The notes: generated from the letters alone by a model not told the origin. 37,742 bases of DNA from a virus (IMGVR_UViG_3300030493_000343:1-37742); one strand, 5' to 3'. Counted from the first letter of the stretch, positions 225 to 30,256 are shown. A program made the numbers and translations.

Positions 225-2636
225 TTAACTTTCTTTTCTGGTTACAGGTTCTTCGATTTCCAGCTCTTCGAGCTCGATATCTTCTTCCTCGTCATAAATA
301 GTCAGCAGCGGCTCATTAAAGGCTTTGGTTGTTGTTAGCCTGTCCAGTCCGATCAGCAAGCTCGGGAGCAGGATCAGATTCGCCATTACGGCCACCAGCA
401 GGGTCAGGGAAACCAAAACCCCTAAAGCCGCGGTTCCGCCGAATTTGGAGATACTGTAGACACCAAATCCAAAAAACAGGACGGCAAATGTGTACAGCAT
501 GCTCATTCCCACCTCACGTACCGTTTGTTTGACGGCAAGCGGAATATTCTGTCCGGTCAGCTTCAATTCCAGCCGGTATTTGGACAGAAAATGGATGGTG
601 TTATCCACGGAGATCCCAAATGCAATACTAAATATCAGTAAGGTGGAAGCCTTTATCGGAATGCCGGTATATCCCATAATCGCAGCGGTGAAGATCAGGG
701 GAAGAAGGTTGGGGATGAGCGACAGAATAACCATCCTCCATGAATTGAACATCGTTGCCATAATGGCTGCGATCAGGATGATCGCCAGTGCCACGCTTGA
801 GATCAGGTTGTCAAGCAGGTACTCGGTTCCCTTGAAGGAAACCACACTCGACCCGGTAACGGTTACCTTGTATTTCTCTTTCGGAAAAATGGAATCCACT
901 TCACGGGTGATGCCGGCGTAAAGCTCGTCCATCGCTTTAGTCCCGATATCCTTTACCCTGAAGCTCATGCGGGTAATCTGCTGGGTACTGTCTAAAAAGG
1001 AATGGAGCTGACCGATACTGTTTTGTGAATCCTGCAGGGAATTATTGGCATAAGCCAGGATAAAGTTCTTTTCCTGGTTCGTTGGCAAGGTGTAGTATTT
1101 TTCCTTTCCGTTGTAGAAAGCCTGTTTCGAAAATTTCAGAATATTGATCACCGAAAGGGGAGCTGACAATTCAGGATGATGCATCAGTTGCTGCTCCAGG
1201 TTGTCAATTTGTTTGAACGTAGCCATGCTCATGGCTTCTTTCGGTTTCTTTGCATCGATCACGATTTCCATGGGCAGAACACCATCAATATGATTCTCAA
1301 AGAATTTGAGATCCTTGTAAATCACATCGCTTTCGGGAATATCATCGACCATATACCCGGAACTTCTGATTAAGGTTGTGCCGTAAATGCCTGCCAGGAG
1401 TACGATAAAAGCTGAAATATAAACTGTTTTGATATGATTGGTGGTCAGGTTGACCAGTTTTTCGATTACATTTTGCAGGTGCTTATTTTCCAGGTGTTTG
1501 ATGTGCCGGTGTTTCGGGGGCCTGATAAAGCTGAAGATAGCCGGGAGCATGATGATTGCCAGGAGATATAACGCCATGATGTTCAGGGAGGCAATGATTC
1601 CGAATTCCCTGAGGAGCTGGCTGTTGGTAATGATAAAGGTGGCGAATCCGCAGGCTGTGGTCAGGTTGGTCAGGAAGGTGGCTGTACCGATCCTGATGAT
1701 CACCCGCTGAAGGGCTTTGATTTTATTTCGGTGAGCCCTGAATTCATAGTGATACTTATTGAGCATGTAAATGCTGTTTGGGATCCCGATCACGATCAGC
1801 AGGGAAGGAATCATTCCGGTGAGCAGTGAAATTTTAAAGCCCAGTAAAGCCATACTTCCCATTGCCCAGATCACGCCGGTGATTACGATTAGCAGTGGGA
1901 ACAGGACAGCCTTTAGTGAACGGAAAAAAATAAATAAGATCAGTGCACACAATCCGACGGCCAGTGCGCTGAACATGTAGACCTCATTTTTGATGCGGAT
2001 CGAATTGATCACCCGGATATACGGCAATCCGGAATAATGAACATCCAGCTTTGTTTCTTTTGCGAAAGCGTCGCATCTGTTTTTGATCGCCAGCACCAGC
2101 TTTTCACGTTCCTTCGATTTCATCTTATCCTTGCTGACTGTGATGCCCAGCATATAAGCATGGTCTTTGGGATTATATAAAAGCCGGCGATAAAAGGGCA
2201 AGGAATGCAAGGTTTCGGACAGGCTGTCCAGTTCTTCCTGACTGGTTATGCGTTTCGGGAAAACCGGTTCCAGTTCGAATTTTCGTTCCCCTGTGTTTTT
2301 TTTCAGATTATAGGCGCTCGACACGGAGATCAGGTTGTCAACCCCGTCCGTGTTGCTGAGATCTTCATTGAGCTTCTGCCATTTGCTGAAGTGGGAGAAT
2401 TGAAAGAAGTCGGGATCAATGATGCCGACTACAATCAGATTTCCTTCTTCACCGAAAGTACTCTTAAAATTCTGATAGTCAATATAAGCGGAATCTTTTT
2501 GAGGGAGGATTTGCGAATATTCGTATGACATTTCGACGCGCGTTGCCTGGTATGCCATAAAAACGGTGACTAAACCAAGCACGATAAGCAGAAGAATCCT
2601 GTTTCGGAGAATAAACCTGGAGAACCGAACCCACAT
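225..2636 (-). CDS. MMPL/RND family transporter (host)
   Basis: Two-fold repeat of 1 TM + soluble loop + 5 TM, with GIPNSIY and GISVDNTIHF motifs. Start moved to ATG 2636 (MWVRFSR) because a promoter-like TATTTTCG lies just upstream on the minus strand (2669-2662). Confidence 0.9.
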   Translation of the reverse strand: MWVRFSRFILRNRILLLIVLGLVTVFMAYQATRVEMSYEYSQILPQKDSAYIDYQNFKSTFGEEGNLIVVGIIDPDFFQFSHFSKWQKLNEDLSNTDGVDNLISVSSAYNLKKNTGERKFELEPVFPKRITSQEELDSLSETLHSLPFYRRLLYNPKDHAYMLGITVSKDKMKSKEREKLVLAIKNRCDAFAKETKLDVHYSGLPYIRVINSIRIKNEVYMFSALAVGLCALILFIFFRSLKAVLFPLLIVITGVIWAMGSMALLGFKISLLTGMIPSLLIVIGIPNSIYMLNKYHYEFRAHRNKIKALQRVIIRIGTATFLTNLTTACGFATFIITNSQLLREFGIIASLNIMALYLLAIIMLPAIFSFIRPPKHRHIKHLENKHLQNVIEKLVNLTTNHIKTVYISAFIVLLAGIYGTTLIRSSGYMVDDIPESDVIYKDLKFFENHIDGVLPMEIVIDAKKPKEAMSMATFKQIDNLEQQLMHHPELSAPLSVINILKFSKQAFYNGKEKYYTLPTNQEKNFILAYANNSLQDSQNSIGQLHSFLDSTQQITRMSFRVKDIGTKAMDELYAGITREVDSIFPKEKYKVTVTGSSVVSFKGTEYLLDNLISSVALAIILIAAIMATMFNSWRMVILSLIPNLLPLIFTAAIMGYTGIPIKASTLLIFSIAFGISVDNTIHFLSKYRLELKLTGQNIPLAVKQTVREVGMSMLYTFAVLFFGFGVYSISKFGGTAALGVLVSLTLLVAVMANLILLPSLLIGLDRLTTTKAFNEPLLTIYDEEEDIELEELEIEEPVTRKES

Positions 2637-2860
2637 AATGAATGTTTCAAAAAATTCAGGACGAAAATAGTCATTAAATCGGGAATATGAAAAACGTATA
2701 AAAAAAGAAGGTAAGTGATGTTCCCCGGGATTGGCTTGTTGTTTGCAGTCAGAAAGATAGCTTAAAACCATTAAACGACTTGCAGTTTTATACTTTGTTT
2801 CCTGATTCCGGCGGGAAAAGATTTTTTTTGCAAAAAGTTTTTTGTTTTCGGAAAAGCTGT

Positions 2861-4763: not shown

Positions 4764-5846
4764 ATGGCATTGATTGATGATATCCTGAAAAATACGAAAC
4801 CGGTCAATCCGATCCCGGCCAGGTCGGTCCAATACCACGATTTACCGATCTCAACAGGGGATTTTGAGTACCTGCAGAAAATAGGCTTCTCCCCGGACGC
4901 TATCAGGTCCGCATACGCTCCTTATGATCCTGACTCCAATAAAAGTGTTCTTGAGAACATTTATAAGCTTTCAGCCAAACAGCCTTCCGCTCCTGACGAA
5001 AAGAAGGTACAAAACGCACAGACTATTGCCGGTATAGGTGATGCCCTGGGAATGCTGGGGCAAATGTGGGCAGCCGGAAAAGGAGCGCATGTCAGGGAAA
5101 GGGATTACGGTCAGACAGCGTCCGGTCAGTTATCGGACAGGGTTGATCAGCTGAGAAACCTCTATACGCAAAGATCTGCAGAATATGACCAGGGCTTGTA
5201 TGACGCGAGAATGAGAGATTTTGTTCGTGGACTCAATGACTATGACACAAACAGGAAAGGGATCCAAACCTCTCTGCAATCAAAAGCAAAAGCGGACATG
5301 GCTCAAAAGAACTGGGAAACGAAGTTTGACCAGAACCAAAAAAACTTTGAGACTTCACAGAAAGCAAAAAGAGAGAACGATGCCGTAACACAAGCGCAGG
5401 GATGGGCCAGGGTTCAGGATGCACAAAACAGGACGCTTGCATATATAGCAAAACAAGGGACAACAGGGAATTATCAAATGATCATTCCCGCAAACGCAAG
5501 TGACCCGGAGGCACAAACCGATCAGTTTGGAAATCCTATCCGATCCCTAACGATGTCGGAAGGGCAAATCGATGCTTACGCCAGACAAGCGCTCAATGAT
5601 CCTGCTTTTCTACAAAGACACCCTCAATTGGTCCTGCAAAGGCCTGACCTTACAGGTTCCGGATCTTATCGCTATAAACCCAATCAGGATATCGCTGCCG
5701 CCTATGTGAAAGAACTGTATGATGCAGGCGCTCCCGCGGATTCGCAACAGTTTGATCTTTCCGCTTCATCGCGTCCTGCCTACCGTGGACCGGTGAGAAA
5801 TGATGAAAGTGATGAATGGGATGAATTTGAAGTTTCTGAATTCTAA
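4764..5846 (+). CDS. Putative internal virion/ejection protein
   Basis: 360 aa, IAGIGDALGMLGQMWAAGKG amphipathic segment and coiled coil; lies between the pilot-like and giant virion genes. Confidence 0.6.
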   Translation: MALIDDILKNTKPVNPIPARSVQYHDLPISTGDFEYLQKIGFSPDAIRSAYAPYDPDSNKSVLENIYKLSAKQPSAPDEKKVQNAQTIAGIGDALGMLGQMWAAGKGAHVRERDYGQTASGQLSDRVDQLRNLYTQRSAEYDQGLYDARMRDFVRGLNDYDTNRKGIQTSLQSKAKADMAQKNWETKFDQNQKNFETSQKAKRENDAVTQAQGWARVQDAQNRTLAYIAKQGTTGNYQMIIPANASDPEAQTDQFGNPIRSLTMSEGQIDAYARQALNDPAFLQRHPQLVLQRPDLTGSGSYRYKPNQDIAAAYVKELYDAGAPADSQQFDLSASSRPAYRGPVRNDESDEWDEFEVSEF

Positions 5847-5855
5847 ATATAAGTT

Positions 5856-8800
5856 ATGCCACTTTATACAAGCAAAGGGAAAATATACGATATACCTGAT
5901 AACCGGGTGAATGCTTTTCTGCAGGCAAGGAAAGATGCAAAGCCTTTTGAAAAGAAAAAGATTAACCTTCCCCCTGTTCCGGTTCCTGCAAACGAGGGAT
6001 TATCTTTTACTCCTTCCCAATCTTCATTTTCTCCTTCATTGAAAGCTGAAGATACGGTTGCGACCGCGATGCAGAATTTTGATCGATTGAAGGCAGAGCA
6101 ACCCAATGTACCCCGTGAAAAAGGGTTCTGGAACACATGGGCCGGTGATGCAGTAGAGAAGCTGGGGGAAGGCACAGCGTGGGCAGGCGAAGGTATCACC
6201 CGATTTGCTAATCTTCCCGTAAAGGTTTATGCCAATACCATAGCAAATAAAGAGGGGATGAACCCGGAAGAGAAATACGCCTTCTCGAAGCTAATGGCCG
6301 CTTCTGCTGCGAATACTTTGAATGTAGAGATGACCGCTGACGCACTGAAGGGAGTACAGGAAAAGCTAGCCGGTAAAGCTGACCGATACGGGGGTAAAGA
6401 TTTTGCCGATTTATGGAAGGCAGGGGACAAGAGCGGGGCTATTGGCCATATCATGCTGGAAGGAGTTAAGAGCCTCCCAATGTCGATAATGGCCGGCGTT
6501 AATCCGGGTGTAGGTTTATCGGTTATTGGTGCGGCTTCTACCGGGCAGAAATATGAGGACCTATCGGACACTGAAAAGCCATCAGCTTTTGCATCATCGA
6601 AGGAGTGGCAGGATTACAGGAGCAATATGTCCATGGGGGAACTGGCCAAGGTTTCCAATGCATTTTTAAGCGGGGCGGCCGAAGCTGGCAGCGAACTCCT
6701 GGGATCGATCCCAATTTTTGGTTGGTTAGGCCGCACATACGCCAAACTTGGAGGGAAAGCAACGGGCGACATCGTTAAAAAAGGCGTTAAGAAGTGGATG
6801 GACGGGATGTTTGACCGTTATGGTCTTCTACTCGCACCTATCGCAGAAGGAAACGAGGAAGTGGCCAACAAAGTTGCCGAGAATACCATCGACTATTTGA
6901 CAGGAGCCAGAACCGACTTTAAACCCTTTGAAGGTACCGGAGAATCGTTCGTTTACGGCGCTGGTGGTGGTGCTCAGTTTTCAGTAGCCGCACTACCTGG
7001 CGTAATAGCCAATCGCTTCACTGGGAAAAGGCAAACGGATATGCCGACTGTTCCTGAAATCAGCATACAGGATCAGGTTAATACCCGGATGCAGCAGGTC
7101 CAGCAGGCTATCCGTGAATCAGCCAATCCTGATATGGGCGCAGTTGTTTCCGCTATCGTCCAGGGCGGTGAACAGCCTGTCCGTATTACCGGCGGTCGTA
7201 TTGTGACCAGACAGGACGGAAGTATAGACCGGGAAAACTCTGACAAGCAAATCTTCTACATTGATGAACAGGGAAACAAGAAAGTCACCTCCATTGATTT
7301 CGTTGAAGAAATAGCAGAAAATATGCCCCTTCCGGATGCCCTGAACTACGCAGGTCAGACTATTCAGGATGAATTCAGGGCAGAGCAGGAAAACGCCGCA
7401 GTACGTCCATACGAAGTGAATGAAACCGTCACGGCTGATATGGGCAACGGGATCACATTTACAGGTCAGATTACAGCTGTCGATGATCAGGGAATGTATG
7501 TTGTCACCGATGCCCAGACCGGCCAGCAGGTAACCATTGAACCCAGGCAAATTGTCGATCAGGACAACATACAGGGTGTTGAGAATGGATCCGTTGTCGA
7601 CTACATGGATGATCAGGGCAACGAGAGAACCGGGACCGTGGACGATGCTCACGGGGTCAGGCCTCAGGGTTTGGTAATCATTGACGGGGAGGGCATCCCT
7701 ATTGAGAAAATTTTAGGGCTGACAGAGCAAAGGAAAGCAGAGCAGGCAACTCAGACACACGGGCAGCCTATGTCTGCACCGCCCATAAAGGCTATCCGGC
7801 TGGGGAAAGATTCTTTTGATTTCAAACAGAATGATGACGGTTCCTTCACCTTTGTTCCATCTGAAAAACTTGATGCCGATAGCGCTTTGGAGAAGCTCGA
7901 AAAAGAATTCAAGGATAATAAGAAGTGGGAAGTAGTTGCCGGGAAAGAACAAATCGAAGTGCCCCCGGCAAACCCGTTTCAGGATCCTACTTTACAAACT
8001 GTCGTGAAAAGCATTCAGATAAGGCGTAAAAATAATCAAAATGCTACACAGCCAACGGGCGGAGACAACAACTTGTCAAAAAGTGAGGTAGATCCCGGAT
8101 TGAAGGCCGAAGCTGAAGCGGAAACAAAGCCGTCTTATTCCTTCAACGGGAAGGATGTTTCAAAAGACTATGTCCACGGAGTTATCGAAGATGCGCAAAG
8201 TAAAGAGGATCTGGCCGGACTGACCTACAGAAATGATCCGGATATCGATGCCATGATCGAAAAGAAATTTCCTGCGCCAAAAACTACCTACCGGATCGGA
8301 AAAACAGAAGTTTCCCGGGACCGGGCATTGGCCAGAATTGACATGGCCGGAACACAGGAACAATTAGAGGAACTGAAGATCGGGAACGATCCGCAGATGC
8401 AGCAAGCTTACAATGCAAAGCTGGCCGAATTCCGGGAACGGGATGACCAGGCTCAGGCTGAAATTAACCGGAAGCATGACAAGCTTGTCTCGATGATGCA
8501 GTCATACAACCAGATTTCACCCGCAGAAAGAAGGCGTATCAATACAGCCTCCATGATGCAGCTTGCTTCTGAATTAGGCTACTACGTAAAGTATGAAAAC
8601 GGCAACGGTGTCCGGATCTTTAGAAACGGTACTGAAATCCGCAGGAATGCGGACAGATTGTCCAATGATGAAATTCAGTCTCACCGCTCATTATCTGACT
8701 ACGATGAGCCGGTTCAAAAGTTGGCCGGTTCTTTATTGCTCCCGTTGAACGTTGAAGGAGTAGAAATCGGCACCATGCAGCCCAAAGAGATTAACCAGGC

Positions 8801-11800
8801 TATTTTGGATGTCCAGGCGGGAAAGAAAACAGTTCTTTCCAACCAGCTTCTTGATGAAATTGAGAAAATTCATACCTCAGGCATCGTGCGGATTAAAGGT
8901 GACCGGAAGACCGGATTTCCCGGAATGGAGGTCCCGATCGATGAATATGTATCCATGATCAACAGCGATATGAGTGAAGCCGATAATAACGCAGCTGTGC
9001 TCATTCCTGAAGATGTTGCCCTAAATATCGAACAAGATCAGTTATCCCCTGAAATACTCAGCCAATTTGAAAACCTAATATTTGAAGGATATGAAAACAC
9101 CCAGCGACAAACCACAGGTACAGAACAACCCAATGCCCAGTCCGGCACAAGTGAAAGCGTACCTGAAACTTCGCAACCACAGGAATCTGAAAATGTTGAA
9201 GGAGAAGTACCGGAACAAGTAACCGACAGCATTTCAGAAGATGAAAAACCTGTTGAACCAGCCGGAGAAATTGATTCAGTCGAACAGGGAGAAAATACCC
9301 CAGAGGAAGAACAAAGGAAGGGAGTCAGCGAAGGATTGGAAGAAAAAGGGACACAGACTACCGCAAACCAGGTGACATCTGGTTTTAATGGTGATTTCCT
9401 TGCTTTAGCTAACCGGGTGATAGAGAATGATAAAATCAGGCAGGAAGAAGCAAAGGTCAATACAAATCCCTCTGAAGCGCAGAAAGAAGCCGGTAATTAT
9501 AAGAAGGGCCATGTCAGGACCCAGGGTTTTGATATCACCATCGAAAACCCCAAAGGATCCGTTCGTTCAGGAGTAGATGAAGATGGCCGGGCATGGGAGC
9601 ATACCATGCAGAATTCATACGGCTATTTCAAACGTACTGAAGGAAAGGACGGAGATCAGATAGACGTTTTTTTAGGCGATAATCCAACTTCCAAAAGAAT
9701 CTTAGTTGTTGACCAGAACAACCCATACACAGGCGAATTTGACGAGAGCAAAGTCATGTTAGCGTTTGATACCGCCCAGCAAGCGAAAGATGCATACATG
9801 TCAAACTATGAACCCGGTTGGACCGGATTCAGAACAATTACCGAAGTGCCGGTTGAGAAATTCCGGGAATGGCTGTATGACGGTGCCAGACAGAGGAAAC
9901 CGTTTTCGGAGTATAAAGGCATGTCAGATCTAGTTAAAATACAAAAAGAAAATAATAACTTTGAGGAAAACCAGATAGATGAAAGAGCGCAAACGTATAA
10001 AACCAAAGAAGGGCAAGAAATACAATATACCCTCCAATTTGGTGACTACGACAGGACAGGCACCGGTGACCTACAACGGAAAGATAATCAAAGACAATCC
10101 CCAAGTCTTAGAAAATTAAGGCCAGGCGAAATTTCATCTGTAGAGATGAAATACACCGCGGATAAAAATTTTGTATTCGACGGCCGGAACAAAATTGAAA
10201 GCACCGATGATGTTGCCTACCTTTTCAGGCAGCTTGAAAATAAGTCGGTGGAAAATATGTTTGCAGCCCTGATTGACGAAAAGGGAAAACCTACTATTCT
10301 GCATCTTTCCATGGGAGGCCGTGCCGGAACGGTGATTGATTTTGGTATCCTGTCCGATGCAATTCACCGCTTTAAGCCGAAAAAGGTTTATCTTTTGCAC
10401 AATCATCCCTCCGGAAACCTTCAGTATTCAGAGGCAGATATAAGGATGCATCAAAAAGCCCGTGACGCTTTTGGCCAAGACCTGATCGGAGAACATATCA
10501 TCATCAATACTACTTCAGGGCAATATGCCAGCTTTACGACCAGATATGACTATGAGATATCAGACCGTCCAATAGATGTTGAAAATGCCCGGAATTACCG
10601 TGTTTTGAAATTTGACAAACAGGTATTCAGAGAAAACACAGTACTGCCGGTACAGGTTACAGGTTCCGCTGATGTGGCAAAGTTTGTAACAGCACAGCGG
10701 TTTTCCGCAAAGGATAAGCAATCCGTACTGTTATTGAGCAGAAGCAATAACATTGTGGCTTATCTTCATATTTCTTCCACGGATTTTTCGTCAAAAGAAA
10801 GCGTTGAAAATCTCATTAAGGAATTACAGGCCTATGCCGGGCGTTTCGGGGCAAAAGGCATTATACTAACCGGAAAAATTCCTGATACAAAATCAAAGTA
10901 TGATGCTCAGGAGTTACAAAATTTCCGGATTGGTATCAGATCTCTAAAAACCAATCTTGAGAACCTGGATGTGTCCCTGTTGGATTATGTTTTTGTAAAA
11001 TCAGATCTGAACCATGAGTCTATGGTCGATGAAGGACTAATGGAACCGGAAGGGGAATACAGGCCTTTGGGCAGAATCACAGTTGACGGGATTGACCGGC
11101 CTGCAAAAAACAGTGAAGGAAAGACAATTCACCCCACGGAGTCGGGGATCAGAAATTTCTGGCGGTGGTTCTCTGATTTTGATAAAGCAAAACGCATCGA
11201 GAAGTTAAGAAATTCAAAACCCATTGAAATTACGGGTAATGAAATCACTCCAAGTGATGATCTGAAAGAGTATAAGAAGAACGCGCTGGAATATGGGAAG
11301 AAACTCCAAGGAGAATATATAAATAAAGATACCGGCGCAACTGTTATGTTGCAACGCGGAAGAAGGAACGGAGGAATAAATGAAGTACTGCAACATGATT
11401 ATAAAGATGTTGAACATCTACAGTCGATTGCCGCTATTCCGCAGATAATCGAAAATGGAATTTATATCGACAGTAGAGAGAACGATAATAAGGAAAAAAA
11501 TCCCGATGTTGCGCGATACGATTATTATGTTTCTGGGTTAAAGATTAGTAATGTTGACTATACTGTTCGTTCAAGCATTGCAATTGACACGAAAGGGAAC
11601 CGTTATTACGACCACAAGTTGACGCAGATAGAAAAAAGAAAACTGCTTGATTCACTTTCCGGAATAACAACTCCCGGGTTTAATCAAGCAGTTTATAACG
11701 GTTTTGGCACAACGCCCGGCACTAAGCCTACTACCGAATACAAAGATAAAAAATTACTTGATCTTTTACAAGTAAGGTCATCAAAAGTGATTGATGGCCA

Positions 11801-14800
11801 AGGAAGACCATTAGTTGTATACCACGGCAGTCCGGTAAAAGGCATCCAGACTTTTGACCTTAATAAATCAGGGCAGAATGTTCAGGGAGAAAGAGGTGCA
11901 GTTTTTTTCACCGACAACGAAAAATTAGCGGATGATTTTTCTTATGAGCGCCTTTCGACGAATGTTCCATTTAAAGATATAAAGGGTAAAAAGGGGCAGG
12001 TCTATCCTGTTTACCTGAGAATGATGAACCCGTTTGATCTTCGGAATATGACCCCGGAAATGGCTGAAATTCTGTCAAAAGAGGATGGATTGCTTTCTTG
12101 GGAACAGGTTATTGAATGGTCCAAAGTAAAGAACAGGCAGCTTATAAAGGCCGGATTACCTAAGCCATTGAGTAAGTTAGCCGCCTACGGCTATGATGGA
12201 GTGATAGCTGGTTTGAATGAGGGTGGTTCGGAATATGCCGTCTTTGATCCTTCGCAGATTAAATCAGTTGAAAATGAGGGAGCCATTGATTCAGAATTCT
12301 TCGATATCTTAGAAGAACAGAAAGCAGGATACTCAAAATCCAGCGGATCCACATCAAATAAAAATCAACCCGGAACAACTGAGCAGGCCCGTATTGAGTT
12401 GGACAAAAGGCTTAAAAATTTAAGGTTTCGTATCCGGGAAGCATGGGAAGACCGCCATTTGGCCGTAAAAAGATTTCTGGACCTTCTCCGTGAAAAAGGA
12501 ACTGAGATTCCCGAATATAACGACTATTACCTGCAGGCGACCCACATCAACGGTAAAATAGATGCACAGCTAAACCAGTATGACAGGAGCTTTCATGTGC
12601 CGCTTAATGATGCAATCCGTGACCTGGAAGACAATGGAGCCAGTTACAGGAGCATAGAGAACTATGCGATTCTCAAACACGGGCTGGAACGCAACGAATG
12701 GATGCGGCAAAAAGCCATTGATGATTTCATGGCTGCCAACCCTGATGCAACCTATGACCAGATTACAAAGTTTGAAGATCGTCTCCCGGATGACTTTTCC
12801 GGGATCACCGCAGTCCAGGAAGAGGTAGAGATGTCAGCCGAAGAATTCATAAGCGATTTCGAGGCCAAGACAGGCAGCCAAAAACTTCTTGATAATTTCT
12901 GGGGCAAAGTCAAAGAGGCCACATCGTTTGCACTAAAAAAGCAGCTTGAAGGCGGATTGATTGACAAGAAAACCTATGACGAACTTATTGCCCGTTACCG
13001 GTATTACATTCCCCTTCGCGGTCACGATGCAGAAACGGCGGAGGACAGGTGGGATTACAGTCCTGATATGGGGACCTACTTTTCTGCTCCTTTACTTGTG
13101 GCAAGGGGAAGAAAAACAAGGTCTGAAAGCCCGTTTGCCTTTATCAGTCAAATGGCTCAAAGCGCAGTTACTTCCTCCAACAGGAATTTGCTCAACCAAA
13201 CGCTGTTAAGACTGGCCGGTAAGGACAAAACAGGATTGTTAAAGGCAAGCAAAACATGGTATGTACAGGCCGGGGTTAACAACGAAGGGAAACCCGTTTT
13301 TGAATCCCGGTCTCCCGCTTACTCGGATGATGCCCAAACATTCAGAGAGAATATTGAGGAATTCGAAGAGCAGATGAAAAAACTGGCCGAACAGGGTCTT
13401 GCATTCCAAAGCGGAGCAAAGCTGAATATCGGCGGACTGTTTATTAAACCTTCACAGGCGGAGCAACACGAGGTTCATGTTTACCAGAATGGCGTTGAAC
13501 ACGTTGTTTACATTAACGCCAATCCTGCTGTGTCCAGGGCTATTACCGGCATGAATTCCAAAGATCTGCACAAGGATCTTCAATGGCTTGCTAAAAGATC
13601 GAAATGGATGGCGGCCAATTTTACCACGAGGAACCCGGTCTTTGTTTTATCTAACTTTTCCCGTGACTATATTTTTGCCTCGTCCATCCTTTCTGTGAAG
13701 GAAAATGCGCTGTATGCATTACAATTCCAGCGAAACATTCTGAAATCAGCCGGGGCGTTGCAGCGATATTTAAGAGGCAAAGCGGACCTGAGTAAAGCCG
13801 AGGACCGGTTTATGGTGGAATATATCATGAACGGGGCAAAGACCGGATTTTCTCACCTGGTAGAACTTCAGACAATCCAAAAGAAGATTGAGCGGGAACT
13901 GAAGAAAGGCGACAAAAAGAATGTCTTTAGATACCTGATTGATACGATTGGCTCTTTTAATGAGTTCGCGGAGAACTTATCCCGGTTATCGGTTTATATC
14001 ACCTCCCGGGAACAGGGCCGGGGTATTGTCCGGTCGGTTTCCGATGCGAAGGAAGTTACAGTAAACTTTAACCGCTCAGGTGCCGGAGGCTACGGATCCC
14101 AATGGATCAGGCCCCTTTATCTGTTTGTCAATGCAGGGATTCAGGCTTTGTCAAATTTTACCAAAGTAGCCGGGAAGAATCCCGGTAAGACAGCGCTCCT
14201 TGTTTCATCTTATGCCATGACCGGCTTTTTGATGCCCATGGTAGCTTCTCTTCTCGGCGGTGATGACGGACTGGATGAATACTTGAAACTGAGTGACTGG
14301 GAACGCCAGAATAACCTTTGCATATACACCGGTAAAGGTTTTATTAAGATCCCGTTACCTCACGAATTGCGGGTATTCAATAAAATGGGTGATGAGATTT
14401 ATCAGTCTGCATTCGGGCAAAAGGATGTGGCACAATCGATTCTTGATGTGTCGCTTGGATTTGCCGATCTTATTCCGGCCAATCCAATGGGATCACTGGA
14501 AATAGAATCCTGGTCAAACCTGCTTCCGGATGTATTTCGTCCCTTTGCCAACCTTGCCGAAAACAAAAACTTCATGGGCGGCAGGATATGGAATGAATGG
14601 GCTGATCCGAATAAACCGGGTTATTTAAAGGTAAGAACAAACAAACGGGGCGAACCATACGCGCCTTCTTTCCTGGTTCGGATTGCTGCCGATTTGGACC
14701 GGGCTACCGGAGGTGACGGGGTGGAAAAAGGACTGGTCAGTTTTAACCCCGATAAGCTGAATCATATCATGAGAGGATACTTCGGCGGGCTTTACAATGT

Positions 14801-15230
14801 GGCCCAACAAGGACTGGATATCGCAAGTAAAACCTACGACTGGACACAAACCGGAGAATTTGAGTTAAAGGCAAGGGAAACTCCCCTGCGCACTTTCTAT
14901 ACTTCTTCTGATGACCTGCAGGTGTCAGGTAATGGATTGAATTCTAAATATTACAAGGTATCCGGCCAAATGCAGGAAGTGGACAGAAAGATAAAGGGGT
15001 ACCGCGATCAGGCTGCATCCGGAGAATTAAGCCTTGGCGGGTTCTCTGACAAGATAAAAAGTATGGGGTCTGATGTGGAAAGATTAAAACGGACAGACCC
15101 TATTATTAAATCGATCAAACGATATGAAAGCTATCTCAAAGAGCTGAACGGACAGGACCAGAAGGAACTTGAAAAAGTAATCTCAAACTTAAAAAAAGAG
15201 GTAATCAGTATTAACAACCAAACAGAATAA
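5856..15230 (+). CDS. Large polyvalent virion protein (InPase, JAB/RadC x2, LPD3-like, ART-PolyVal-like, LPD38-like C-terminus)
   Basis: Motifs: PSEAQKEAGNYKKGH...ENPKGSVRSG...YGY...DGDQIDVF...FDESKVML (InPase, ~9456-9918); LLHNHPSG...SEAD (JAB, ~10190-10510); NKDTG...IPQIIENG...RYYDHKL (LPD3-like, ~11180-11640); GRPLVVYHGS...FFTDN...YPVYL...GYDGVI...EYAVFDPSQIKS (ART-like, ~11780-12290); TVNFNRSG...IKIPLPHEL...YFGG (LPD38-like, ~14050-14800). Confidence 0.88.
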   Translation: MPLYTSKGKIYDIPDNRVNAFLQARKDAKPFEKKKINLPPVPVPANEGLSFTPSQSSFSPSLKAEDTVATAMQNFDRLKAEQPNVPREKGFWNTWAGDAVEKLGEGTAWAGEGITRFANLPVKVYANTIANKEGMNPEEKYAFSKLMAASAANTLNVEMTADALKGVQEKLAGKADRYGGKDFADLWKAGDKSGAIGHIMLEGVKSLPMSIMAGVNPGVGLSVIGAASTGQKYEDLSDTEKPSAFASSKEWQDYRSNMSMGELAKVSNAFLSGAAEAGSELLGSIPIFGWLGRTYAKLGGKATGDIVKKGVKKWMDGMFDRYGLLLAPIAEGNEEVANKVAENTIDYLTGARTDFKPFEGTGESFVYGAGGGAQFSVAALPGVIANRFTGKRQTDMPTVPEISIQDQVNTRMQQVQQAIRESANPDMGAVVSAIVQGGEQPVRITGGRIVTRQDGSIDRENSDKQIFYIDEQGNKKVTSIDFVEEIAENMPLPDALNYAGQTIQDEFRAEQENAAVRPYEVNETVTADMGNGITFTGQITAVDDQGMYVVTDAQTGQQVTIEPRQIVDQDNIQGVENGSVVDYMDDQGNERTGTVDDAHGVRPQGLVIIDGEGIPIEKILGLTEQRKAEQATQTHGQPMSAPPIKAIRLGKDSFDFKQNDDGSFTFVPSEKLDADSALEKLEKEFKDNKKWEVVAGKEQIEVPPANPFQDPTLQTVVKSIQIRRKNNQNATQPTGGDNNLSKSEVDPGLKAEAEAETKPSYSFNGKDVSKDYVHGVIEDAQSKEDLAGLTYRNDPDIDAMIEKKFPAPKTTYRIGKTEVSRDRALARIDMAGTQEQLEELKIGNDPQMQQAYNAKLAEFRERDDQAQAEINRKHDKLVSMMQSYNQISPAERRRINTASMMQLASELGYYVKYENGNGVRIFRNGTEIRRNADRLSNDEIQSHRSLSDYDEPVQKLAGSLLLPLNVEGVEIGTMQPKEINQAILDVQAGKKTVLSNQLLDEIEKIHTSGIVRIKGDRKTGFPGMEVPIDEYVSMINSDMSEADNNAAVLIPEDVALNIEQDQLSPEILSQFENLIFEGYENTQRQTTGTEQPNAQSGTSESVPETSQPQESENVEGEVPEQVTDSISEDEKPVEPAGEIDSVEQGENTPEEEQRKGVSEGLEEKGTQTTANQVTSGFNGDFLALANRVIENDKIRQEEAKVNTNPSEAQKEAGNYKKGHVRTQGFDITIENPKGSVRSGVDEDGRAWEHTMQNSYGYFKRTEGKDGDQIDVFLGDNPTSKRILVVDQNNPYTGEFDESKVMLAFDTAQQAKDAYMSNYEPGWTGFRTITEVPVEKFREWLYDGARQRKPFSEYKGMSDLVKIQKENNNFEENQIDERAQTYKTKEGQEIQYTLQFGDYDRTGTGDLQRKDNQRQSPSLRKLRPGEISSVEMKYTADKNFVFDGRNKIESTDDVAYLFRQLENKSVENMFAALIDEKGKPTILHLSMGGRAGTVIDFGILSDAIHRFKPKKVYLLHNHPSGNLQYSEADIRMHQKARDAFGQDLIGEHIIINTTSGQYASFTTRYDYEISDRPIDVENARNYRVLKFDKQVFRENTVLPVQVTGSADVAKFVTAQRFSAKDKQSVLLLSRSNNIVAYLHISSTDFSSKESVENLIKELQAYAGRFGAKGIILTGKIPDTKSKYDAQELQNFRIGIRSLKTNLENLDVSLLDYVFVKSDLNHESMVDEGLMEPEGEYRPLGRITVDGIDRPAKNSEGKTIHPTESGIRNFWRWFSDFDKAKRIEKLRNSKPIEITGNEITPSDDLKEYKKNALEYGKKLQGEYINKDTGATVMLQRGRRNGGINEVLQHDYKDVEHLQSIAAIPQIIENGIYIDSRENDNKEKNPDVARYDYYVSGLKISNVDYTVRSSIAIDTKGNRYYDHKLTQIEKRKLLDSLSGITTPGFNQAVYNGFGTTPGTKPTTEYKDKKLLDLLQVRSSKVIDGQGRPLVVYHGSPVKGIQTFDLNKSGQNVQGERGAVFFTDNEKLADDFSYERLSTNVPFKDIKGKKGQVYPVYLRMMNPFDLRNMTPEMAEILSKEDGLLSWEQVIEWSKVKNRQLIKAGLPKPLSKLAAYGYDGVIAGLNEGGSEYAVFDPSQIKSVENEGAIDSEFFDILEEQKAGYSKSSGSTSNKNQPGTTEQARIELDKRLKNLRFRIREAWEDRHLAVKRFLDLLREKGTEIPEYNDYYLQATHINGKIDAQLNQYDRSFHVPLNDAIRDLEDNGASYRSIENYAILKHGLERNEWMRQKAIDDFMAANPDATYDQITKFEDRLPDDFSGITAVQEEVEMSAEEFISDFEAKTGSQKLLDNFWGKVKEATSFALKKQLEGGLIDKKTYDELIARYRYYIPLRGHDAETAEDRWDYSPDMGTYFSAPLLVARGRKTRSESPFAFISQMAQSAVTSSNRNLLNQTLLRLAGKDKTGLLKASKTWYVQAGVNNEGKPVFESRSPAYSDDAQTFRENIEEFEEQMKKLAEQGLAFQSGAKLNIGGLFIKPSQAEQHEVHVYQNGVEHVVYINANPAVSRAITGMNSKDLHKDLQWLAKRSKWMAANFTTRNPVFVLSNFSRDYIFASSILSVKENALYALQFQRNILKSAGALQRYLRGKADLSKAEDRFMVEYIMNGAKTGFSHLVELQTIQKKIERELKKGDKKNVFRYLIDTIGSFNEFAENLSRLSVYITSREQGRGIVRSVSDAKEVTVNFNRSGAGGYGSQWIRPLYLFVNAGIQALSNFTKVAGKNPGKTALLVSSYAMTGFLMPMVASLLGGDDGLDEYLKLSDWERQNNLCIYTGKGFIKIPLPHELRVFNKMGDEIYQSAFGQKDVAQSILDVSLGFADLIPANPMGSLEIESWSNLLPDVFRPFANLAENKNFMGGRIWNEWADPNKPGYLKVRTNKRGEPYAPSFLVRIAADLDRATGGDGVEKGLVSFNPDKLNHIMRGYFGGLYNVAQQGLDIASKTYDWTQTGEFELKARETPLRTFYTSSDDLQVSGNGLNSKYYKVSGQMQEVDRKIKGYRDQAASGELSLGGFSDKIKSMGSDVERLKRTDPIIKSIKRYESYLKELNGQDQKELEKVISNLKKEVISINNQTE
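9091..9222 (+). CDS. Candidate nested +1-frame mini-ORF (43 aa) inside the polyvalent gene
   Basis: MKTPSDKPQVQNNPMPSPAQVKAYLKLRNHRNLKMLKEKYRNK*. Overlies a low-complexity linker; near-consensus AATATTTG at 9077-9084. Confidence 0.35.
   Translation: MKTPSDKPQVQNNPMPSPAQVKAYLKLRNHRNLKMLKEKYRNK
9979..10119 (+). CDS. Candidate nested +1-frame mini-ORF (46 aa) with its own promoter
   Basis: MKERKRIKPKKGKKYNIPSNLVTTTGQAPVTYNGKIIKDNPQVLEN*. Perfect TAACTTTG -7 element at 9956-9963, 15 nt upstream; fills the InPase-JAB linker. Confidence 0.5.
   Translation: MKERKRIKPKKGKKYNIPSNLVTTTGQAPVTYNGKIIKDNPQVLEN
11631..11736 (-). ncRNA. Candidate structured antisense sRNA inside the polyvalent gene
   Basis: Minus-strand TTG-N20-TATCTTTG promoter (11771-11741); perfect 13-bp inverted repeat 11640-11652/11682-11694 followed by a U tract; inner 6-bp stem with a 7-nt loop. 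Confidence 0.6.
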
Positions 15231-15232
15231 TC

Positions 15233-17203
15233 ATGATCAAGGCAAACGTTAAGCTGGCTGCAAAGTATTTCCCTAAAGAGAAAAAGGACAGGGAGAAGAT
15301 TGACACGGCAAAAAGCGGGGATACCAGGAAAAACAATATTGTTTTAATGGACGCCTTTACTGCATGGACGGGGCTCGACTCTTTCAGGAAAATGGCCGAA
15401 AGAAACAAAATGTACACCTTTTCGGATCAATGGGGAGACCGGATTCCTAATCCGGACGGTCCGGGATCGATAACCGAACGCCGGAATATATTGAATCAGG
15501 GCAGTATACCGCTTCAAAATAACAGGATCCGCGGAATTGCCCGGTCCGTTATTGGTGTTTTTCAAAGTATGCAGACTGAACCGGTGTGTACGGCCAGAGA
15601 CCGGGATGAGCAGTCTGACGGGGAAATGATGTCCGCTACCCTCCAGTACGTTTACCAGCGTAACAAGTTGTGGGGATTGGATAGCAATTGCCTTTTGTAT
15701 TTTATCGTTACCGGCGTTGGCGCTTTTAAAAGCACATGGGGGTGGAGGAACGGCTCCATGGATGTTTGGGATAACCTGGTTAATCCGAACAGGTTGTTTT
15801 TTGACAACCATATGCAGGATCCCCGCCATTGGGACTGCCATTTGATCGGTGAAATACACGACGTGGGCCTGTATGACGTGATGGCGCAATTCTCACACGG
15901 CTCGCGTGAAAAAGCAGAAGAAATACGAAGGATCTATGCCGGTTGCAACAGGGAGCGGACAATCGCCTATGTGGATAACCTGAGGGAAAACCTAAGGAAT
16001 CATTTGGATTTCTTTATCCCCACCGATGAGACCAGGTGTCGGGTGATCGAAATATGGAAGAAAGAAAGCAAAGAAAGGCTGTTGGTCCATGATGCTTTGA
16101 CCGGAGAGTTCTACAAAGCTGAACTGGAAGATGAGCGCAAATTAACCCAAGAGAATAAAATCCGCAAGGCAGATCAGGCAGCCCAGGGAATTGCGCCCAA
16201 AGATATGAAGCTGATAAAATTCGTTTGGTTTATCGATAACTACTGGTATTACTATTACATGTCGCCGCAGGGCGATGTTCTGGATGAAGGAGAAACACCT
16301 TTCTGGCATGAATCACACCCATATTCATTTAAGGTGTACCCCTTCTATGATGGTCAGGTTTTCCCGTTTGTCAGCGACTTTATTGATCAGAACCGTTACA
16401 TTAACCGGCTGATCACTTTACAGGACTTTGTTATCCGATCATCTGCCAAAGGTGTACTGGCCGTCCCGGATGACCTGCCTGACGGGTGGCCCATAGAGCG
16501 ATATGCCAGCGAATGGGCCAGGTATAACGGTGTTATCCTCTTTAAGGCAAAGCCAGGCGTCCCGTTGCCACAGCAAATTGTTTCCAACGTATCGCAGTTA
16601 GGAATAACGGATATGCTCTCGATCCAGCTTAAACTACTCGAGGACATATCCGGAGTACAGGGAGCGCTGCAAGGGCAGGCGCCCAAAGCAGGAACGCCAG
16701 CATCTCTTTATATGCAGCAAACGCAGAATTCATCAACATCCCTTACCGAAATATTTGAAGCATTCCGGGAATTAAGGGAAGAACGGGATATGAAGAATAT
16801 GAAGCTGATCCAGCAGTTCTATACCGAGCCACGGTATATTAATATCAGCGGGAACAGTGCACAGGGCAAAAGGATGGTGTATAATCCGCAAAAGGTCCGG
16901 AATGCCGAATTCGATCTTTCGATAACAGAAAGTACTTCTACCCCTGCCTATCGGATGGTTATGAATGACTTTTTGATGCAGATATACAATACCGGCCAAA
17001 TATCCCTGGAAGAAGTACTTCAAAACGGGGCTTTCCCGTTTGCCGATAAGTTGCTGCAGTCGATCAAGGCGCGCGGCGGTCAGATAGGTGCCGGCAATGT
17101 AGCTCCTGAAGGCGGACAGGTCGTGCCGCAGGATATCGGGCAGCAAGTTATGCAGGGTACAAGCCCGATCGTTCAGCAGATGTTAACCAGAAAAGCCGCT
17201 TAA
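15233..17203 (+). CDS. Portal protein (P22-like)
   Basis: 656 aa; SDQW...IPLQNNRIRGIARSVIG, FIDQNRYINRL, LLEDISGVQGALQG, FDLSITESTSTPAYR patterns of P22-type portals. Confidence 0.85.
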   Translation: MIKANVKLAAKYFPKEKKDREKIDTAKSGDTRKNNIVLMDAFTAWTGLDSFRKMAERNKMYTFSDQWGDRIPNPDGPGSITERRNILNQGSIPLQNNRIRGIARSVIGVFQSMQTEPVCTARDRDEQSDGEMMSATLQYVYQRNKLWGLDSNCLLYFIVTGVGAFKSTWGWRNGSMDVWDNLVNPNRLFFDNHMQDPRHWDCHLIGEIHDVGLYDVMAQFSHGSREKAEEIRRIYAGCNRERTIAYVDNLRENLRNHLDFFIPTDETRCRVIEIWKKESKERLLVHDALTGEFYKAELEDERKLTQENKIRKADQAAQGIAPKDMKLIKFVWFIDNYWYYYYMSPQGDVLDEGETPFWHESHPYSFKVYPFYDGQVFPFVSDFIDQNRYINRLITLQDFVIRSSAKGVLAVPDDLPDGWPIERYASEWARYNGVILFKAKPGVPLPQQIVSNVSQLGITDMLSIQLKLLEDISGVQGALQGQAPKAGTPASLYMQQTQNSSTSLTEIFEAFRELREERDMKNMKLIQQFYTEPRYINISGNSAQGKRMVYNPQKVRNAEFDLSITESTSTPAYRMVMNDFLMQIYNTGQISLEEVLQNGAFPFADKLLQSIKARGGQIGAGNVAPEGGQVVPQDIGQQVMQGTSPIVQQMLTRKAA

Positions 17204-17778: not shown

Positions 17779-17958
17779 TCATTTTAGTAGTTCAATCAGT
17801 TTTCCGTTCATTCCTCCCCTACTCCTTACTTTCCTTTCCCTGGCCAGCTGGTTTAGTTCGTTTCGCCCGGGTTCTCCAAACTTGTTCAGTACCTCTACCA
17901 GGCGAAAGAACGGCCAGCCGGTTAGGGCATATTCTTTATTTAAAAATTCTTCTACCAT
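17779..17958 (-). CDS. Small protein, possible winged-helix (59 aa; missing from the ORF track)
   Basis: MVEEFLNKEYALTGWPFFRLVEVLNKFGEPGRNELNQLARERKVRSRGGMNGKLIELLK*. Overlaps the rhomboid 3' end and fills the gap to the terminator. Confidence 0.55.
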   Translation of the reverse strand: MVEEFLNKEYALTGWPFFRLVEVLNKFGEPGRNELNQLARERKVRSRGGMNGKLIELLK

Positions 17959-18463
17959 CGGGAAATCTCATTTCCTTTATTAATCGACAGCATGCGTAGA
18001 TAAATATTCCCGTCAAAAAAGACAGTGAGTGAAGGATATGATTGCTGGTTTTACTAAGAGAGCTGACGGTTAAGGCGATAACCACTGTTGTCAGGAATAT
18101 CACGTACTTTCTTAAGTTTAAAATCTTAATCCCGTTACTGAAAGCTGTTATGCCAACATACAGCCCGGTCATCATATAGATCATGCCGGAGGCGCCAACG
18201 GTTGGAAGATCATCAGCTGCAAGAAATGATAACAGAAATCCTCCGGTCAAGGAAGCTAAAATAAGGATCCATTTACTGATTAGTCGTTCCGTGGCACGGA
18301 AGATTCCCACAAAAGCCAGCGAGTTGACCATTAAGTGAATTAAACCTGCATGCTGAAACAAGTAGGTGATATGAGTATAAAATGGCGATGTGTTTGTGTA
18401 TCCCAGCTCGCTCCCAAAGAAGACATATACCAGGATAAATACAAGTACGAATACATATTTCAT
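17936..18463 (-). CDS. Rhomboid family intramembrane serine protease
   Basis: FQHAGLIHLMVN (HxxxxHxxxN), catalytic VGASG, His in the last TM (NHILHSLSFLTG); about 6 hydrophobic segments. Confidence 0.88.
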   Translation of the reverse strand: MKYVFVLVFILVYVFFGSELGYTNTSPFYTHITYLFQHAGLIHLMVNSLAFVGIFRATERLISKWILILASLTGGFLLSFLAADDLPTVGASGMIYMMTGLYVGITAFSNGIKILNLRKYVIFLTTVVIALTVSSLSKTSNHILHSLSFLTGIFIYACCRLIKEMRFPDGRRIFK

Positions 18464-18846
18464 ACAAGGCTCGGCTTTTTAAGGAGTTGATAGTACAGAT
18501 TCATGGCCCGGGGAGCTGATATGTAAAACCGCGGGGCGCTTTGTTCTGAAATGATCCTTGCTATTTGAGAAACAGCCATTTGTGGATTCTCTTTTGACAG
18601 CTCGATATGCCGGGTATAAATCTCGGTGTAAAGGTCATACTTTGCATCTAATCTTGGTCTGGCATGCCTGGCCCTTCGAATGATCACATAACAGGCACGG
18701 GCAGAAAGGTAGAATGACTTTGCGGGATGATGGATGGCCTTTTTTACAATATCAGAAACAGATATGTAAGACCCCGATTCTTTGCGTATCGACTCACATA
18801 CGTTAAAGAAATCTTCGTTTCGTTCTTCTTCGTAGAATAATCTCAT
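18460..18846 (-). CDS. Putative DNA-binding regulator with internal duplication
   Basis: ATG 18846. Repeats SVSDIVKKAIHHPAKSFYLS / AVSQIARIISEQSAPRFYIS; TAATTTTG at 18859-18852; 4-nt overlap with the rhomboid start. Confidence 0.55.
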   Translation of the reverse strand: MRLFYEEERNEDFFNVCESIRKESGSYISVSDIVKKAIHHPAKSFYLSARACYVIIRRARHARPRLDAKYDLYTEIYTRHIELSKENPQMAVSQIARIISEQSAPRFYISAPRAMNLYYQLLKKPSLV

Positions 18847-18899
18847 GTTCACAAAATTACAGGGACGCAAAGTTTTCTTTCGGGTGATGGGGGTGTTTG

Positions 18900-18931
18900 T
18901 TTTCGACATTGGAAACGGCACTTTTCGACAT
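18900..18931 (+). promoter_or_regulatory. Tandem TTTTCGACAT motifs (copies 2 and 3) in the divergent promoter region
   Basis: Exact copies at 18900-18909 and 18922-18931 (22-bp period); degenerate TTTTCGCACC at 18941. Confidence 0.6.
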
Positions 18932-29681: not shown

Positions 29682-29689
29682 TAACTTTG
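29682..29689 (+). promoter_or_regulatory. -7 element of the toxin-antitoxin operon
   Basis: TAACTTTG ending 35 nt before the antitoxin ATG. Confidence 0.65.
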
Positions 29690-29723: not shown

Positions 29724-29984
29724 ATGGCGGTATTACAGGTAACGGCGAGACAGTTCAGGGAGAAACAAAAAAGCTTCTTCGAACTGGCGGACAAGGGGCA
29801 AAAAGTAATCATCAAAAGGGGCAGGAAACAGGCCTATGTACTGACCCCGATTGATGACGACGACTTGTATTTTACCCCGGAAATGCTCGAAAAAATAGAC
29901 CGCTCGATGCGGCAGGCCCGGGAAGGAAAAGTAACAACGGTAGAGACAGAAGAAGAGCTCACGAAATTTCTTGACAGTTTATGA
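29724..29984 (+). CDS. Phd/YefM family antitoxin
   Basis: VTARQFREKQKSFFELADKGQKVIIKRG Phd fold; ATGA overlap with the toxin. Confidence 0.88.
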   Translation: MAVLQVTARQFREKQKSFFELADKGQKVIIKRGRKQAYVLTPIDDDDLYFTPEMLEKIDRSMRQAREGKVTTVETEEELTKFLDSL

Positions 29985-30256
29985 GCTACAAAATCTGCTT
30001 TACGCAGGAGGCTGCAGAGGACCTTTCTAAGCTAAAGAAAAATGAACCGGCAGCGTTCAAAAAAGCTGAAGAACTTCTCAGGGAACTAAGAGAACATCCC
30101 CGTACAGGAACGGGGAGACCCGAACAAATGAAGCACGGGTACAAAGGATGCTGGTCAAGACGGATCACGCAAAAACACCGCATGGTCTATTCCGTTGACG
30201 ATGAGAAAATAACTGTCTTGGTTATTTCAGCCATGGGCCACTATGGTGATAAATAG
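29981..30256 (+). CDS. yoeB: Txe/YoeB family toxin
   Basis: HPRTGTGRPEQMK...WSRRITQKHRMVY...GHY. Confidence 0.93.
   Translation: MSYKICFTQEAAEDLSKLKKNEPAAFKKAEELLRELREHPRTGTGRPEQMKHGYKGCWSRRITQKHRMVYSVDDEKITVLVISAMGHYGDK

Follow-up and report, generated by a model that had tools for sequence, protein, structure and literature searches.

Antisense RNA gene and two likely overlapping genes nested in a giant phage polyvalent gene, with products that may restrain the adjacent domains

How does a cell tolerate the polyvalent proteins of a phage that it carries or produces? Polyvalent proteins contain many predicted nuclease or toxin domains and have no visible immunity genes, so that the tolerance of the producing cell calls for an explanation. 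The question is posed by a giant open reading frame (ORF) in IMGVR_UViG_3300030493_000343, a stretch of viral DNA that was analysed over its full 37,742 nucleotides (nt) and is called the window here; unprefixed positions refer to it.

5856 to 15230, plus strand: giant polyvalent protein gene, 3124 amino acids (aa), in the phage head/ejection module.

The window derives from a phage or prophage. Its giant ORF joins five Pfam families in one polypeptide (InPase, aa 1207–1340; RadC/JAB, 1449–1561; LPD3, 1802–1918; ART-PolyVal; and LPD38), the multi-domain make-up of a phage polyvalent protein, and is set among virion genes, near the portal, an SU10-type capsid, terminase and gp14-like genes, with an endolysin also in the window. 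The original prediction, made from the DNA alone, had stated that no separate immunity gene flanks this ORF, and this was confirmed: the upstream ORF ends at 5846, the portal gene starts at 15233 (2 nt past the stop), and neither flank holds a small gene. The answer proposed here is that the partners are written inside the gene. The giant gene holds an antisense RNA gene and two likely genes in the +1 frame (mini-ORFs A and B), each product likely restraining the domain adjacent to it, a reading to which we assign a probability of roughly one half (about 0.52). The nested elements themselves appear real or likely real, and immunity would be their likeliest function.

The evidence is strongest for the linker that follows LPD3, where the following features were assigned.

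11178 to 11779, plus strand: LPD3 cassette (domain at 11259–11609, RNA-coding linker and promoter), inserted in the N-terminal part of ART-PolyVal.
11741 to 11771, minus strand: predicted antisense promoter of the Bacteroidota type, with the −7 box TATCTTTG at 11741–11748, a 20-nt spacer and the −33 TTG at 11769–11771.
11699 to 11736, minus strand: 5′ module of the predicted RNA, a three-way junction (‘J’) that has conserved loops and two hairpins of 3 bp.
11630 to 11694, minus strand: 3′ module of the predicted RNA, a long stem-loop (11640–11694) and then a U-rich tract, a predicted intrinsic terminator.

The Bacteroidota promoter consensus is given as TTTG at −33 and TANNTTTGY at −7 (PMC8748976). 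Homologous linkers were compared using 142 LPD3 profile matches in fetched loci; 6 without the anchor motif, the truncated match in L056 and duplicates were dropped, leaving 64 distinct downstream regions and 60 distinct promoter regions. An antisense TAnnTTTG stands at the identical place in 55/56 of the distinct promoter regions of the Bacteroidota type, and the other 4 regions (Neisseria, two Pasteurellaceae and one contig grouping with them) have a sigma-70 promoter, TTGCAA-17 nt-TATCAT, at the same place. Furthermore, the positions at which a change would be silent in the protein are invariant, namely the preceding C (56/56), the lysine codon AAA (56/56) and the final A of the −33 codon (56/56), while the two free letters of the −7 box vary and alter the encoded residue (KD, KG, KV, KY, KI). 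These comparisons show that the predicted antisense promoter is under selection at the DNA level and matches the promoter type of the host. For the window, the promoter type and most of the named relatives point to a Bacteroidota host.

No excess of the motif was seen in the window alone, with 30 matches to TAnnTTTG against 31.3 expected, nor in the giant ORF compared with its synonymous shuffles (sense strand, 3 against 3.1; antisense strand, 4 against 5.5). Since the window alone is at chance level, the signal for nested elements comes only from relatives. In 37 non-redundant polyvalent ORFs chosen for LPD3 (proteobacterial-type loci were excluded here, from the counts of ORFs behind sense boxes and from the domain survey below), 107 full antisense promoters were found against 16.5 in synonymous shuffles (maximum 23), compared with 14 against 6.6 in 208 other ORFs. 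Forty-five of the 107 belong to LPD3, and the 107 are distributed over the reading frames as 71, 34 and 2. Pfam was applied to 26 of the 62 matches outside LPD3: 20 follow MuF_C, PBECR1-3 or LPD13, one follows a distant LPD3 and one an ART domain, and four were uninformative. The enrichment over a codon-shuffled background that had been anticipated is therefore absent from the window and present across the ORFs of its relatives. The lack of enrichment in the window would suit an explanation in which all three nested elements are by-products of the protein sequence, that is, of a KD..L.S.LQ motif and of NE/DE dipeptides. We find this explanation scarcely credible, as it is contradicted by the fixed synonymous positions, the host-matched switch of promoter type and the independence of reading frame, and also by the covariation and the mapped transcript described below.

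Which domains carry the antisense unit was surveyed by scoring an antisense −7 box at most 270 nt after each domain, a result obtained at 14.5% of random places. The box follows LPD3 in 42/43 cases, MuF_C in 25/26, PBECR1 in 9/9, PBECR2 in 7/7, PBECR3 in 4/4, LPD13 in 3/3 and one unnamed domain in 5/5, the figures of the BECR group being biased upwards by seeds taken from promoter-bearing copies. It is rare after other domains (InPase, 3/22; ART, 0/12; LPD38, 0/22; kinase, 0/5; ParB, 1/5; JAB, 0/2). The survey shows that the predicted antisense promoter accompanies domains of the BECR type and not the other types examined; the proposal that every swappable effector domain bears an element of its own is thus not borne out. 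For LPD3 the idea of a domain travelling with its own element was well founded. The N-terminus of ART-PolyVal is an empty site in P0123 and is filled by the LPD3 cassette elsewhere, and the same cassette occurs beside different neighbours in other proteins, which shows, as far as sequence comparison can, that promoter, RNA and LPD3 travel as a single cassette. A single polyvalent gene, L077:801–8598, has eight full antisense promoters after domains of the MuF_C, PBECR1, PBECR3 and LPD13 types.

The transcript predicted from the minus strand of the window runs from about 11736 to 11630 (∼105 nt) and comprises the three-way junction, the long stem-loop and the U-rich tract. The window hairpin is more stable than 200/200 shuffles (z −3.76, and −3.42 in a second computation), and 53/62 distinct homologous RNAs fold at z<−2. 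The minimum free energy fold of the single window sequence differs from the fold of J based on covariation, and the window terminator was not called by a simple terminator scan. Among 23 distinct sequences of the J module, 98% of cells are paired and 9/11 pairs are compensatory, above both shuffled and slid controls, with counts inflated by the relatedness of the sequences; the comparison shows that the predicted RNA structure covaries. J was found 28 times in 2.1 Mb of loci and in 28/28 cases it is antisense and directly after LPD3. Folding alone is a weak guide to the strand (the sense strand also folds at z<−2 in 54/62, and the antisense strand is the more stable in 56/62), and the RNA is assigned to the antisense strand because the promoter decides it. 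With the domains pooled, a hairpin followed by a U-tract was found at 45/104 promoter matches and at 24/300 random places. The RNAs after other domains fold unevenly, with 16/19 after MuF_C and 4/9 after PBECR1, compared with 4/40 at random. In Rfam, no family reached threshold, and the two chance-level matches within 8900–12000 do not lie on the RNA.

The RNA also has a modular architecture that follows the domains. Two stacked modules are present in 15/82 protein linkers, and the window RNA is of this two-module form; modules typical of one LPD3 subfamily occur behind domains in proteins without that subfamily. On the LPD3 tree the RNA types cluster, with 13 changes against 29.9 when shuffled. 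In L036 (1781–2050) the LPD3 tail is tandemly duplicated, giving two hairpin-plus-terminator units under one promoter. Taken together, the promoter, fold and covariation across relatives make it almost certain that the antisense RNA gene is real. The hairpin RNA that the original prediction had placed after LPD3 is in this way upheld by relatives, while its promoter motif is not above chance in the window alone.

Further support comes from a published transcriptome of Neisseria gonorrhoeae MS11, in which prophage regions are called mainly silent (Remmele et al., 2014; PMC4176332). In Table S1 of that study the giant gene of the NgoPhi2 prophage has a sense signal of 4.5 reads per kilobase per million mapped reads (RPKM), and NgncR_132, a transcript internal to the gene and antisense to it, is listed with a primary start, 604 RPKM and a length of 309 nt; it is a single row of the table, without mention in the main text. 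On locus L062, which encodes a giant protein with LPD3, the start of NgncR_132 falls at 10481 when counted from the capsid side and at 10491 from the gene start. Position 10481 lies 7 nt downstream of the −10 box of the homologous promoter, and the gene has no other sigma-70-like promoter on that strand. Internal expression in the uninduced lysogen, as had been foreseen, is thereby indicated for a homologue (604 against 4.5 RPKM, ±10 nt) and not for the window phage itself. The giant gene of the Neisseria strain of L062 ends ∼600 nt before the MS11 gene as annotated (L062:13150–13755).

The same transcript bears on whether the RNA is an ordinary cis-antisense regulator that pairs with the giant message, so that leaky transcripts are cut or left untranslated in the lysogen and the domain is not bound at all. 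The predicted RNA unit does have its own promoter and terminator opposite its target strand, and its complementarity to the message is full by construction. At 309 nt, NgncR_132 is not the ∼80 nt predicted there and therefore reaches the LPD3 coding region, fitting plain antisense; it overlaps the end of LPD3, and the sense gene is hardly expressed. Moreover, many of the hairpins have short apical loops suited to kissing, and RNA types swap among close domains. However, pure antisense requires no conserved internal fold, and J keeps invariant unpaired bases together with compensatory stems. One silencer per gene would be enough, yet there is one unit per BECR-type domain (L077 has its eight full promoters beside its LPD3), and unrelated domains are followed by stacked modules from other subfamilies. 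We consider silencing of the message alone, the strongest alternative, unlikely.

The preferred reading, in which the RNA restrains the domain, would depend on what LPD3 is. A structural model of LPD3 (predicted local distance difference test score, pLDDT, 81.5) has its best matches among CdiA toxin domains (7m5f_C, Z 5.4, root-mean-square deviation 3.2, 87 aligned residues; 6cp9_A, Z 5.3), with MqsR, BrnT, RelE and colicin D lower, all within a weak range of Z 3.6–5.4. The model suggests that LPD3 is likely a BECR-like RNase. We envisage that host RNA polymerase would make the RNA in the lysogen and that the folded RNA would bind LPD3, acting as an RNase, much as type III antitoxins bind their toxins. 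The RNA would then shield the cell against protein that arises by leakage or has just been made, as well as against protein that related phages inject, and extra modules borrowed from other LPD3 subfamilies may widen this protection. That the RNA acts by binding protein we hold to be a little less than an even chance.

The two other nested elements lie further upstream in the same gene. The second, mini-ORF B, stands before JAB.

9956 to 9963, plus strand: sense −7 box TAACTTTG, 15 nt ahead of the ATG of B.
9979 to 10119, plus strand: mini-ORF B, encoding a basic peptide of 46 aa in the +1 frame; its end coincides with the beginning of the JAB module.
10200 to 10538, plus strand: RadC-like JAB domain (Pfam).

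The ATG, the 46 codons and the stop of B are retained in 3/3 JAB loci despite differing upstream sequence; the chance that a 46-codon +1 window is open is 11.5%. The sense −7 box TAACTTTG has no listed change in a close relative, one mismatch in L031 and is absent in L030, and at −33 the window has TTA instead of TTG. Counted as synonymous/non-synonymous changes, the +1 frame has 8/25 and the main frame 4/30 between the window and L031, and 9/27 and 5/30 between L030 and L031. The two halves of B behave differently in the close relative, the substitutions of which come from the contigs of four runs and are probably those of DNA: the main frame is favoured in the first half (+1 frame, 0/9; main frame, 4/4), the +1 frame in the second (+1 frame, 6/4; main frame, 1/8). 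Selection of the first half for the main frame may be due to the main-frame peptide QYTLQF (10020–10043), which overlaps it, is kept in close relatives and is similar to a sliding-clamp-binding motif.

A profile of the three B peptides matched 13 proteins among 1.84 billion. Seven of these, longer proteins matched in several short stretches, were set aside, and the remaining 6 are unnamed proteins of 50–93 aa that share motifs in both halves. Pattern searches for homologues of B found just the window contig and the L031 contig, with 6/401 genomes matched at chance level, and the JAB region had no match in GenBank phages. The sequence comparisons suggest that B is most likely a member of a conserved family of small proteins tied to JAB, and we regard it as very probably a real gene. 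A conserved region 3′ of JAB at 10560–11060, without a Pfam match and kept in all three JAB loci, is possibly a second, degenerate JAB-like domain.

The first element, mini-ORF A, is less firmly placed.

8448 to 9080, plus strand: unnamed conserved domain (aa ∼865–1075), directly upstream of A.
9077 to 9084, plus strand: imperfect −7 box AATATTTG, one mismatch, doubtful, just 6 nt ahead of the ATG of A.
9091 to 9222, plus strand: mini-ORF A, 43 aa, basic, +1 frame, ATG start.
9474 to 9875, plus strand: InPase domain, with no nested partner assigned.

No exact TAnnTTTG precedes A. Dipeptides capable of encoding the ATG and the stop stand at A's places in 5/5 protein homologues (against backgrounds of 5.7% and 14%; at these places two of the five are nearly identical), and the residues of the start-capable dipeptide vary while the capability is kept. 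In these protein homologues 71/99 changed sites are compatible with the +1 peptide (background ∼0.5). In a test over the whole protein, a gap-free alignment over the core of A was available in 1/5 homologues (13/16; background 0.54), and several segments outside A were equally high in others. Viral, metagenome and pattern searches for homologous DNA found only the window's own phage, and no separately called homologue of A was found. On balance A is probably a real gene, judging from its sequence. The unnamed domain upstream has 5 other proteins at 45–76% identity and no match in Pfam, PHROG or Atlas, and none to the alpha domain described below. A had been placed with InPase as its partner; this was rejected, as A ends ∼85 codons ahead of InPase, InPase is preceded by many unrelated linkers, and linkers compatible with A follow the unnamed domain, which sequence context makes its likely partner.

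Nested +1 proteins are found in relatives as well. Of the sense −7 boxes, 34/137 stand ahead of an out-of-frame ORF with 25 codons or more, against 16.1 in shuffles (other genes, 13 against 13.9). In two families the +1 frame is better conserved than the main frame, in 55/55 divergent pairs of family alpha (14 sequences) and in 9/9 of family gamma (5 sequences). The alpha genes (L033:4023–4268, L085:7845–8084, L079:7974–8168, L111:6954–7136 and others) encode unannotated helical proteins of 58–94 aa and are nested after an unnamed acidic helical domain. Gamma follows a ddrB-ParB module, and another nested family precedes Kinase-PolyVal. Other nested +1 families occur after ddrB-ParB modules (L044:3666–3827, L120:5916, L038:6621, L121:4368, L056:5178), and at L121:6690–6887 and L049:2014 a nested +1 ORF with an exact sense −7 box lies directly ahead of Kinase-PolyVal. 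Selection in a second frame, as expected of dual-coding genes, is accordingly seen in families alpha and gamma, in the second half of B with its homologues and, judged from protein sequences only, in A.

These data also bear on an explanation in which the RNA gene is real and the frames of A and B are open by chance, the linkers containing few Leu, Ile and Val residues. In its favour are the chance openness quoted above, the absence of an exact promoter, DNA homologue or separate homologue for A, the promoter of B being exact in 1/3 loci and, when all +1 ORFs are taken together, the +1 frame being favoured in just 72/252 divergent pairs. It does not readily account for the 6 separately called homologues of B that keep both motif halves, for the synonymous bias of B in the +1 frame, or for the start-capable dipeptide of A, retained in 5/5 homologues against a background of 5.7% while its residues vary. 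Chance frames therefore seem to us rather improbable for A and B together.

With regard to the sigma-A type elements announced for all three linkers, exact −7 boxes are present for B and for the antisense unit, and the box of A has one mismatch. The suggestion that the linkers are by-products of nested genes holds in that the linkers are shaped by such genes, and fails for the first half of B, which evolves for the main frame. Nested +1 proteins as such are real in relatives.

Binding between a nested product and its neighbour was modelled for alpha and its upstream segment in L033. The complex scored 0.80, compared with 0.00 for the best of 3 controls, on a mark reached by 116/157 solved pairs and by 2/215 mismatched pairs; contact agreement between runs was at least 97% and the pLDDT of the partners at least 88. 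The model supports binding of alpha to its upstream neighbour; it bears on binding and does not show inhibition. For the model of the alpha domain, Foldseek returned nothing at E≤0.001. By analogy, A would bind the unnamed upstream domain and B would bind JAB, as inhibitor or chaperone. That the partners help the domains, with the RNA as a guide, a cofactor or a decoy for a host factor and the small proteins as chaperones for folding or packaging, would agree with the modelled alpha interface, which covers acidic helices of a domain without a known toxic fold. It would also agree with MuF_C, which carries the promoter in 25/26 cases though the MuF-C of phage Mu is predicted to be inactive and RNA-binding in the sections of PMC5512222 that deal with it. 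Expression in the uninduced lysogen of Neisseria, however, occurs at a stage with little synthesis of giant protein, and no Rfam family was matched at threshold; we consider a helping role improbable.

Several observations weigh against restraint of the adjacent domains by the nested products. To our knowledge, none of InPase, JAB and the unnamed upstream domain is a known toxin. The LPD3 model had no Foldseek match at E≤0.001, and its BECR fold is weakly supported (best Z 5.4). The alpha pair belongs to a relative and is not detectably homologous to the A pair of the window, and between the window and L030 the changes in B favour the main frame (+1 frame, 5/27; main frame, 13/18). In the domain survey, besides the upward bias of the seeds, PBECR5 has an antisense −7 box in just 1/7 cases. 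The RNAs after PBECR2 (0/5) and after one unnamed domain (0/5) fold no better than chance in 110 nt, and RNA type is not one-to-one with the LPD3 tree (13 changes, the least possible being 6). Four of the 56 regions with a Bacteroidota box come from bins labelled Bacillota or Actinomycetota, probably through misbinning. The placement of NgncR_132 is arithmetic across two strains (±10 nt), and the length of this transcript exceeds that predicted by more than 200 nt (309 against ∼80 nt).

A wider reading, which we put forward tentatively, is that polyvalent genes are arrays of self-contained effector-antidote cassettes, in which BECR-type tails encode RNA inhibitors, other domains have overprinted protein inhibitors, and stacked modules are acquired immunity against the RNases of competing phages. 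Nesting has the consequence that a domain retains its partner gene during domain shuffling within one reading frame. If polyvalent genes are such arrays, they would contain a new class of RNA antitoxin, ranging from Bacteroidota to Proteobacteria and invisible to annotation; if the RNAs bind BECR-fold RNases, they would be natural inhibitors of nucleases and an RNA antitoxin of a new kind. RNA and protein genes would lie hidden in the ‘linker’ sequence of thousands of phage genes, and cloning a domain without its tail (∼110 nt) may alter its toxicity. For polyvalent proteins as a whole, nested genes offer a concrete and testable answer to the missing immunity.

Elsewhere in the window, a pair of genes of the ordinary kind, including a RelE-like toxin (phrog_1213), occupies 29724–30256, with TAACTTTG ahead of it at 29682. 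On the minus strand, two genes at 17936–18921, one of the rhomboid family, run against the direction of the head genes and are possibly a moron; a −7 box (18852–18859) lies inside the second. At the left end, the gene for an MMPL/RND membrane protein (225–2771, minus strand) may be host DNA at a prophage junction.

Compared with known systems, the locus shares with the phage polyvalent proteins described by Iyer et al. (2017; PMC5512222) the domain set of InPase, RadC/JAB, LPD3, ART and LPD38, the virion-gene context and the mosaicism. The word ‘promoter’ occurs 0 times in the main text of that paper, and its passages on these proteins name no nested genes or cognate antidotes. No description of nested RNA or protein genes in polyvalent genes was found in searches of freely accessible papers and of the main texts of preprints, and the available text of one preprint (bioRxiv 10.64898/2026.08.28.747851) uses ‘antisense’ 0 times.

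Type III toxin-antitoxin systems (ToxIN, AbiQ, CptIN; defined in PMC11980606) resemble the LPD3 unit in having a small structured RNA, sometimes of several modules, beside a predicted RNase. The type III antitoxin RNA is a set of repeats upstream and on the same strand, whereas the RNA here is downstream, antisense and inside the ORF; it has its own predicted promoter and terminator and no tandem-repeat pseudoknot array, its binding is a prediction, and it matches no known antitoxin RNA family in Rfam. Known type III toxins are MazF-like, while the domain here is BECR-like. The MuF polymorphic toxins (Jamet et al., 2017; PMC5576092) are likewise virion-associated effectors of temperate phages with a small partner gene, a small downstream ORF being reported there for 89.4% of 191 toxin genes. 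Those toxins are C-terminal, and their partners are encoded by genes of their own further downstream; the present domains are internal and the putative partners are overprinted RNAs or proteins. NgncR_132 (Table S1 of PMC4176332) is alike in its antisense start at the homologous promoter after LPD3 and unlike in its 309 nt, its sigma-70 promoter and its other hairpin type.

Lambda OOP RNA and the antitoxin RNAs of type I systems are cis-encoded antisense RNAs with their own promoter and terminator in a prophage, as here, but the unit described here is written in in-frame linker codons, once per RNase-like domain, and has conserved internal modules. Lambda Rz/Rz1 offers the precedent of a small +1-frame gene within a larger phage gene, the product of which binds the larger protein; these are lysis lipoproteins. 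The nested genes proposed here would differ from this pair in being effector partners carried by shuffled domains.

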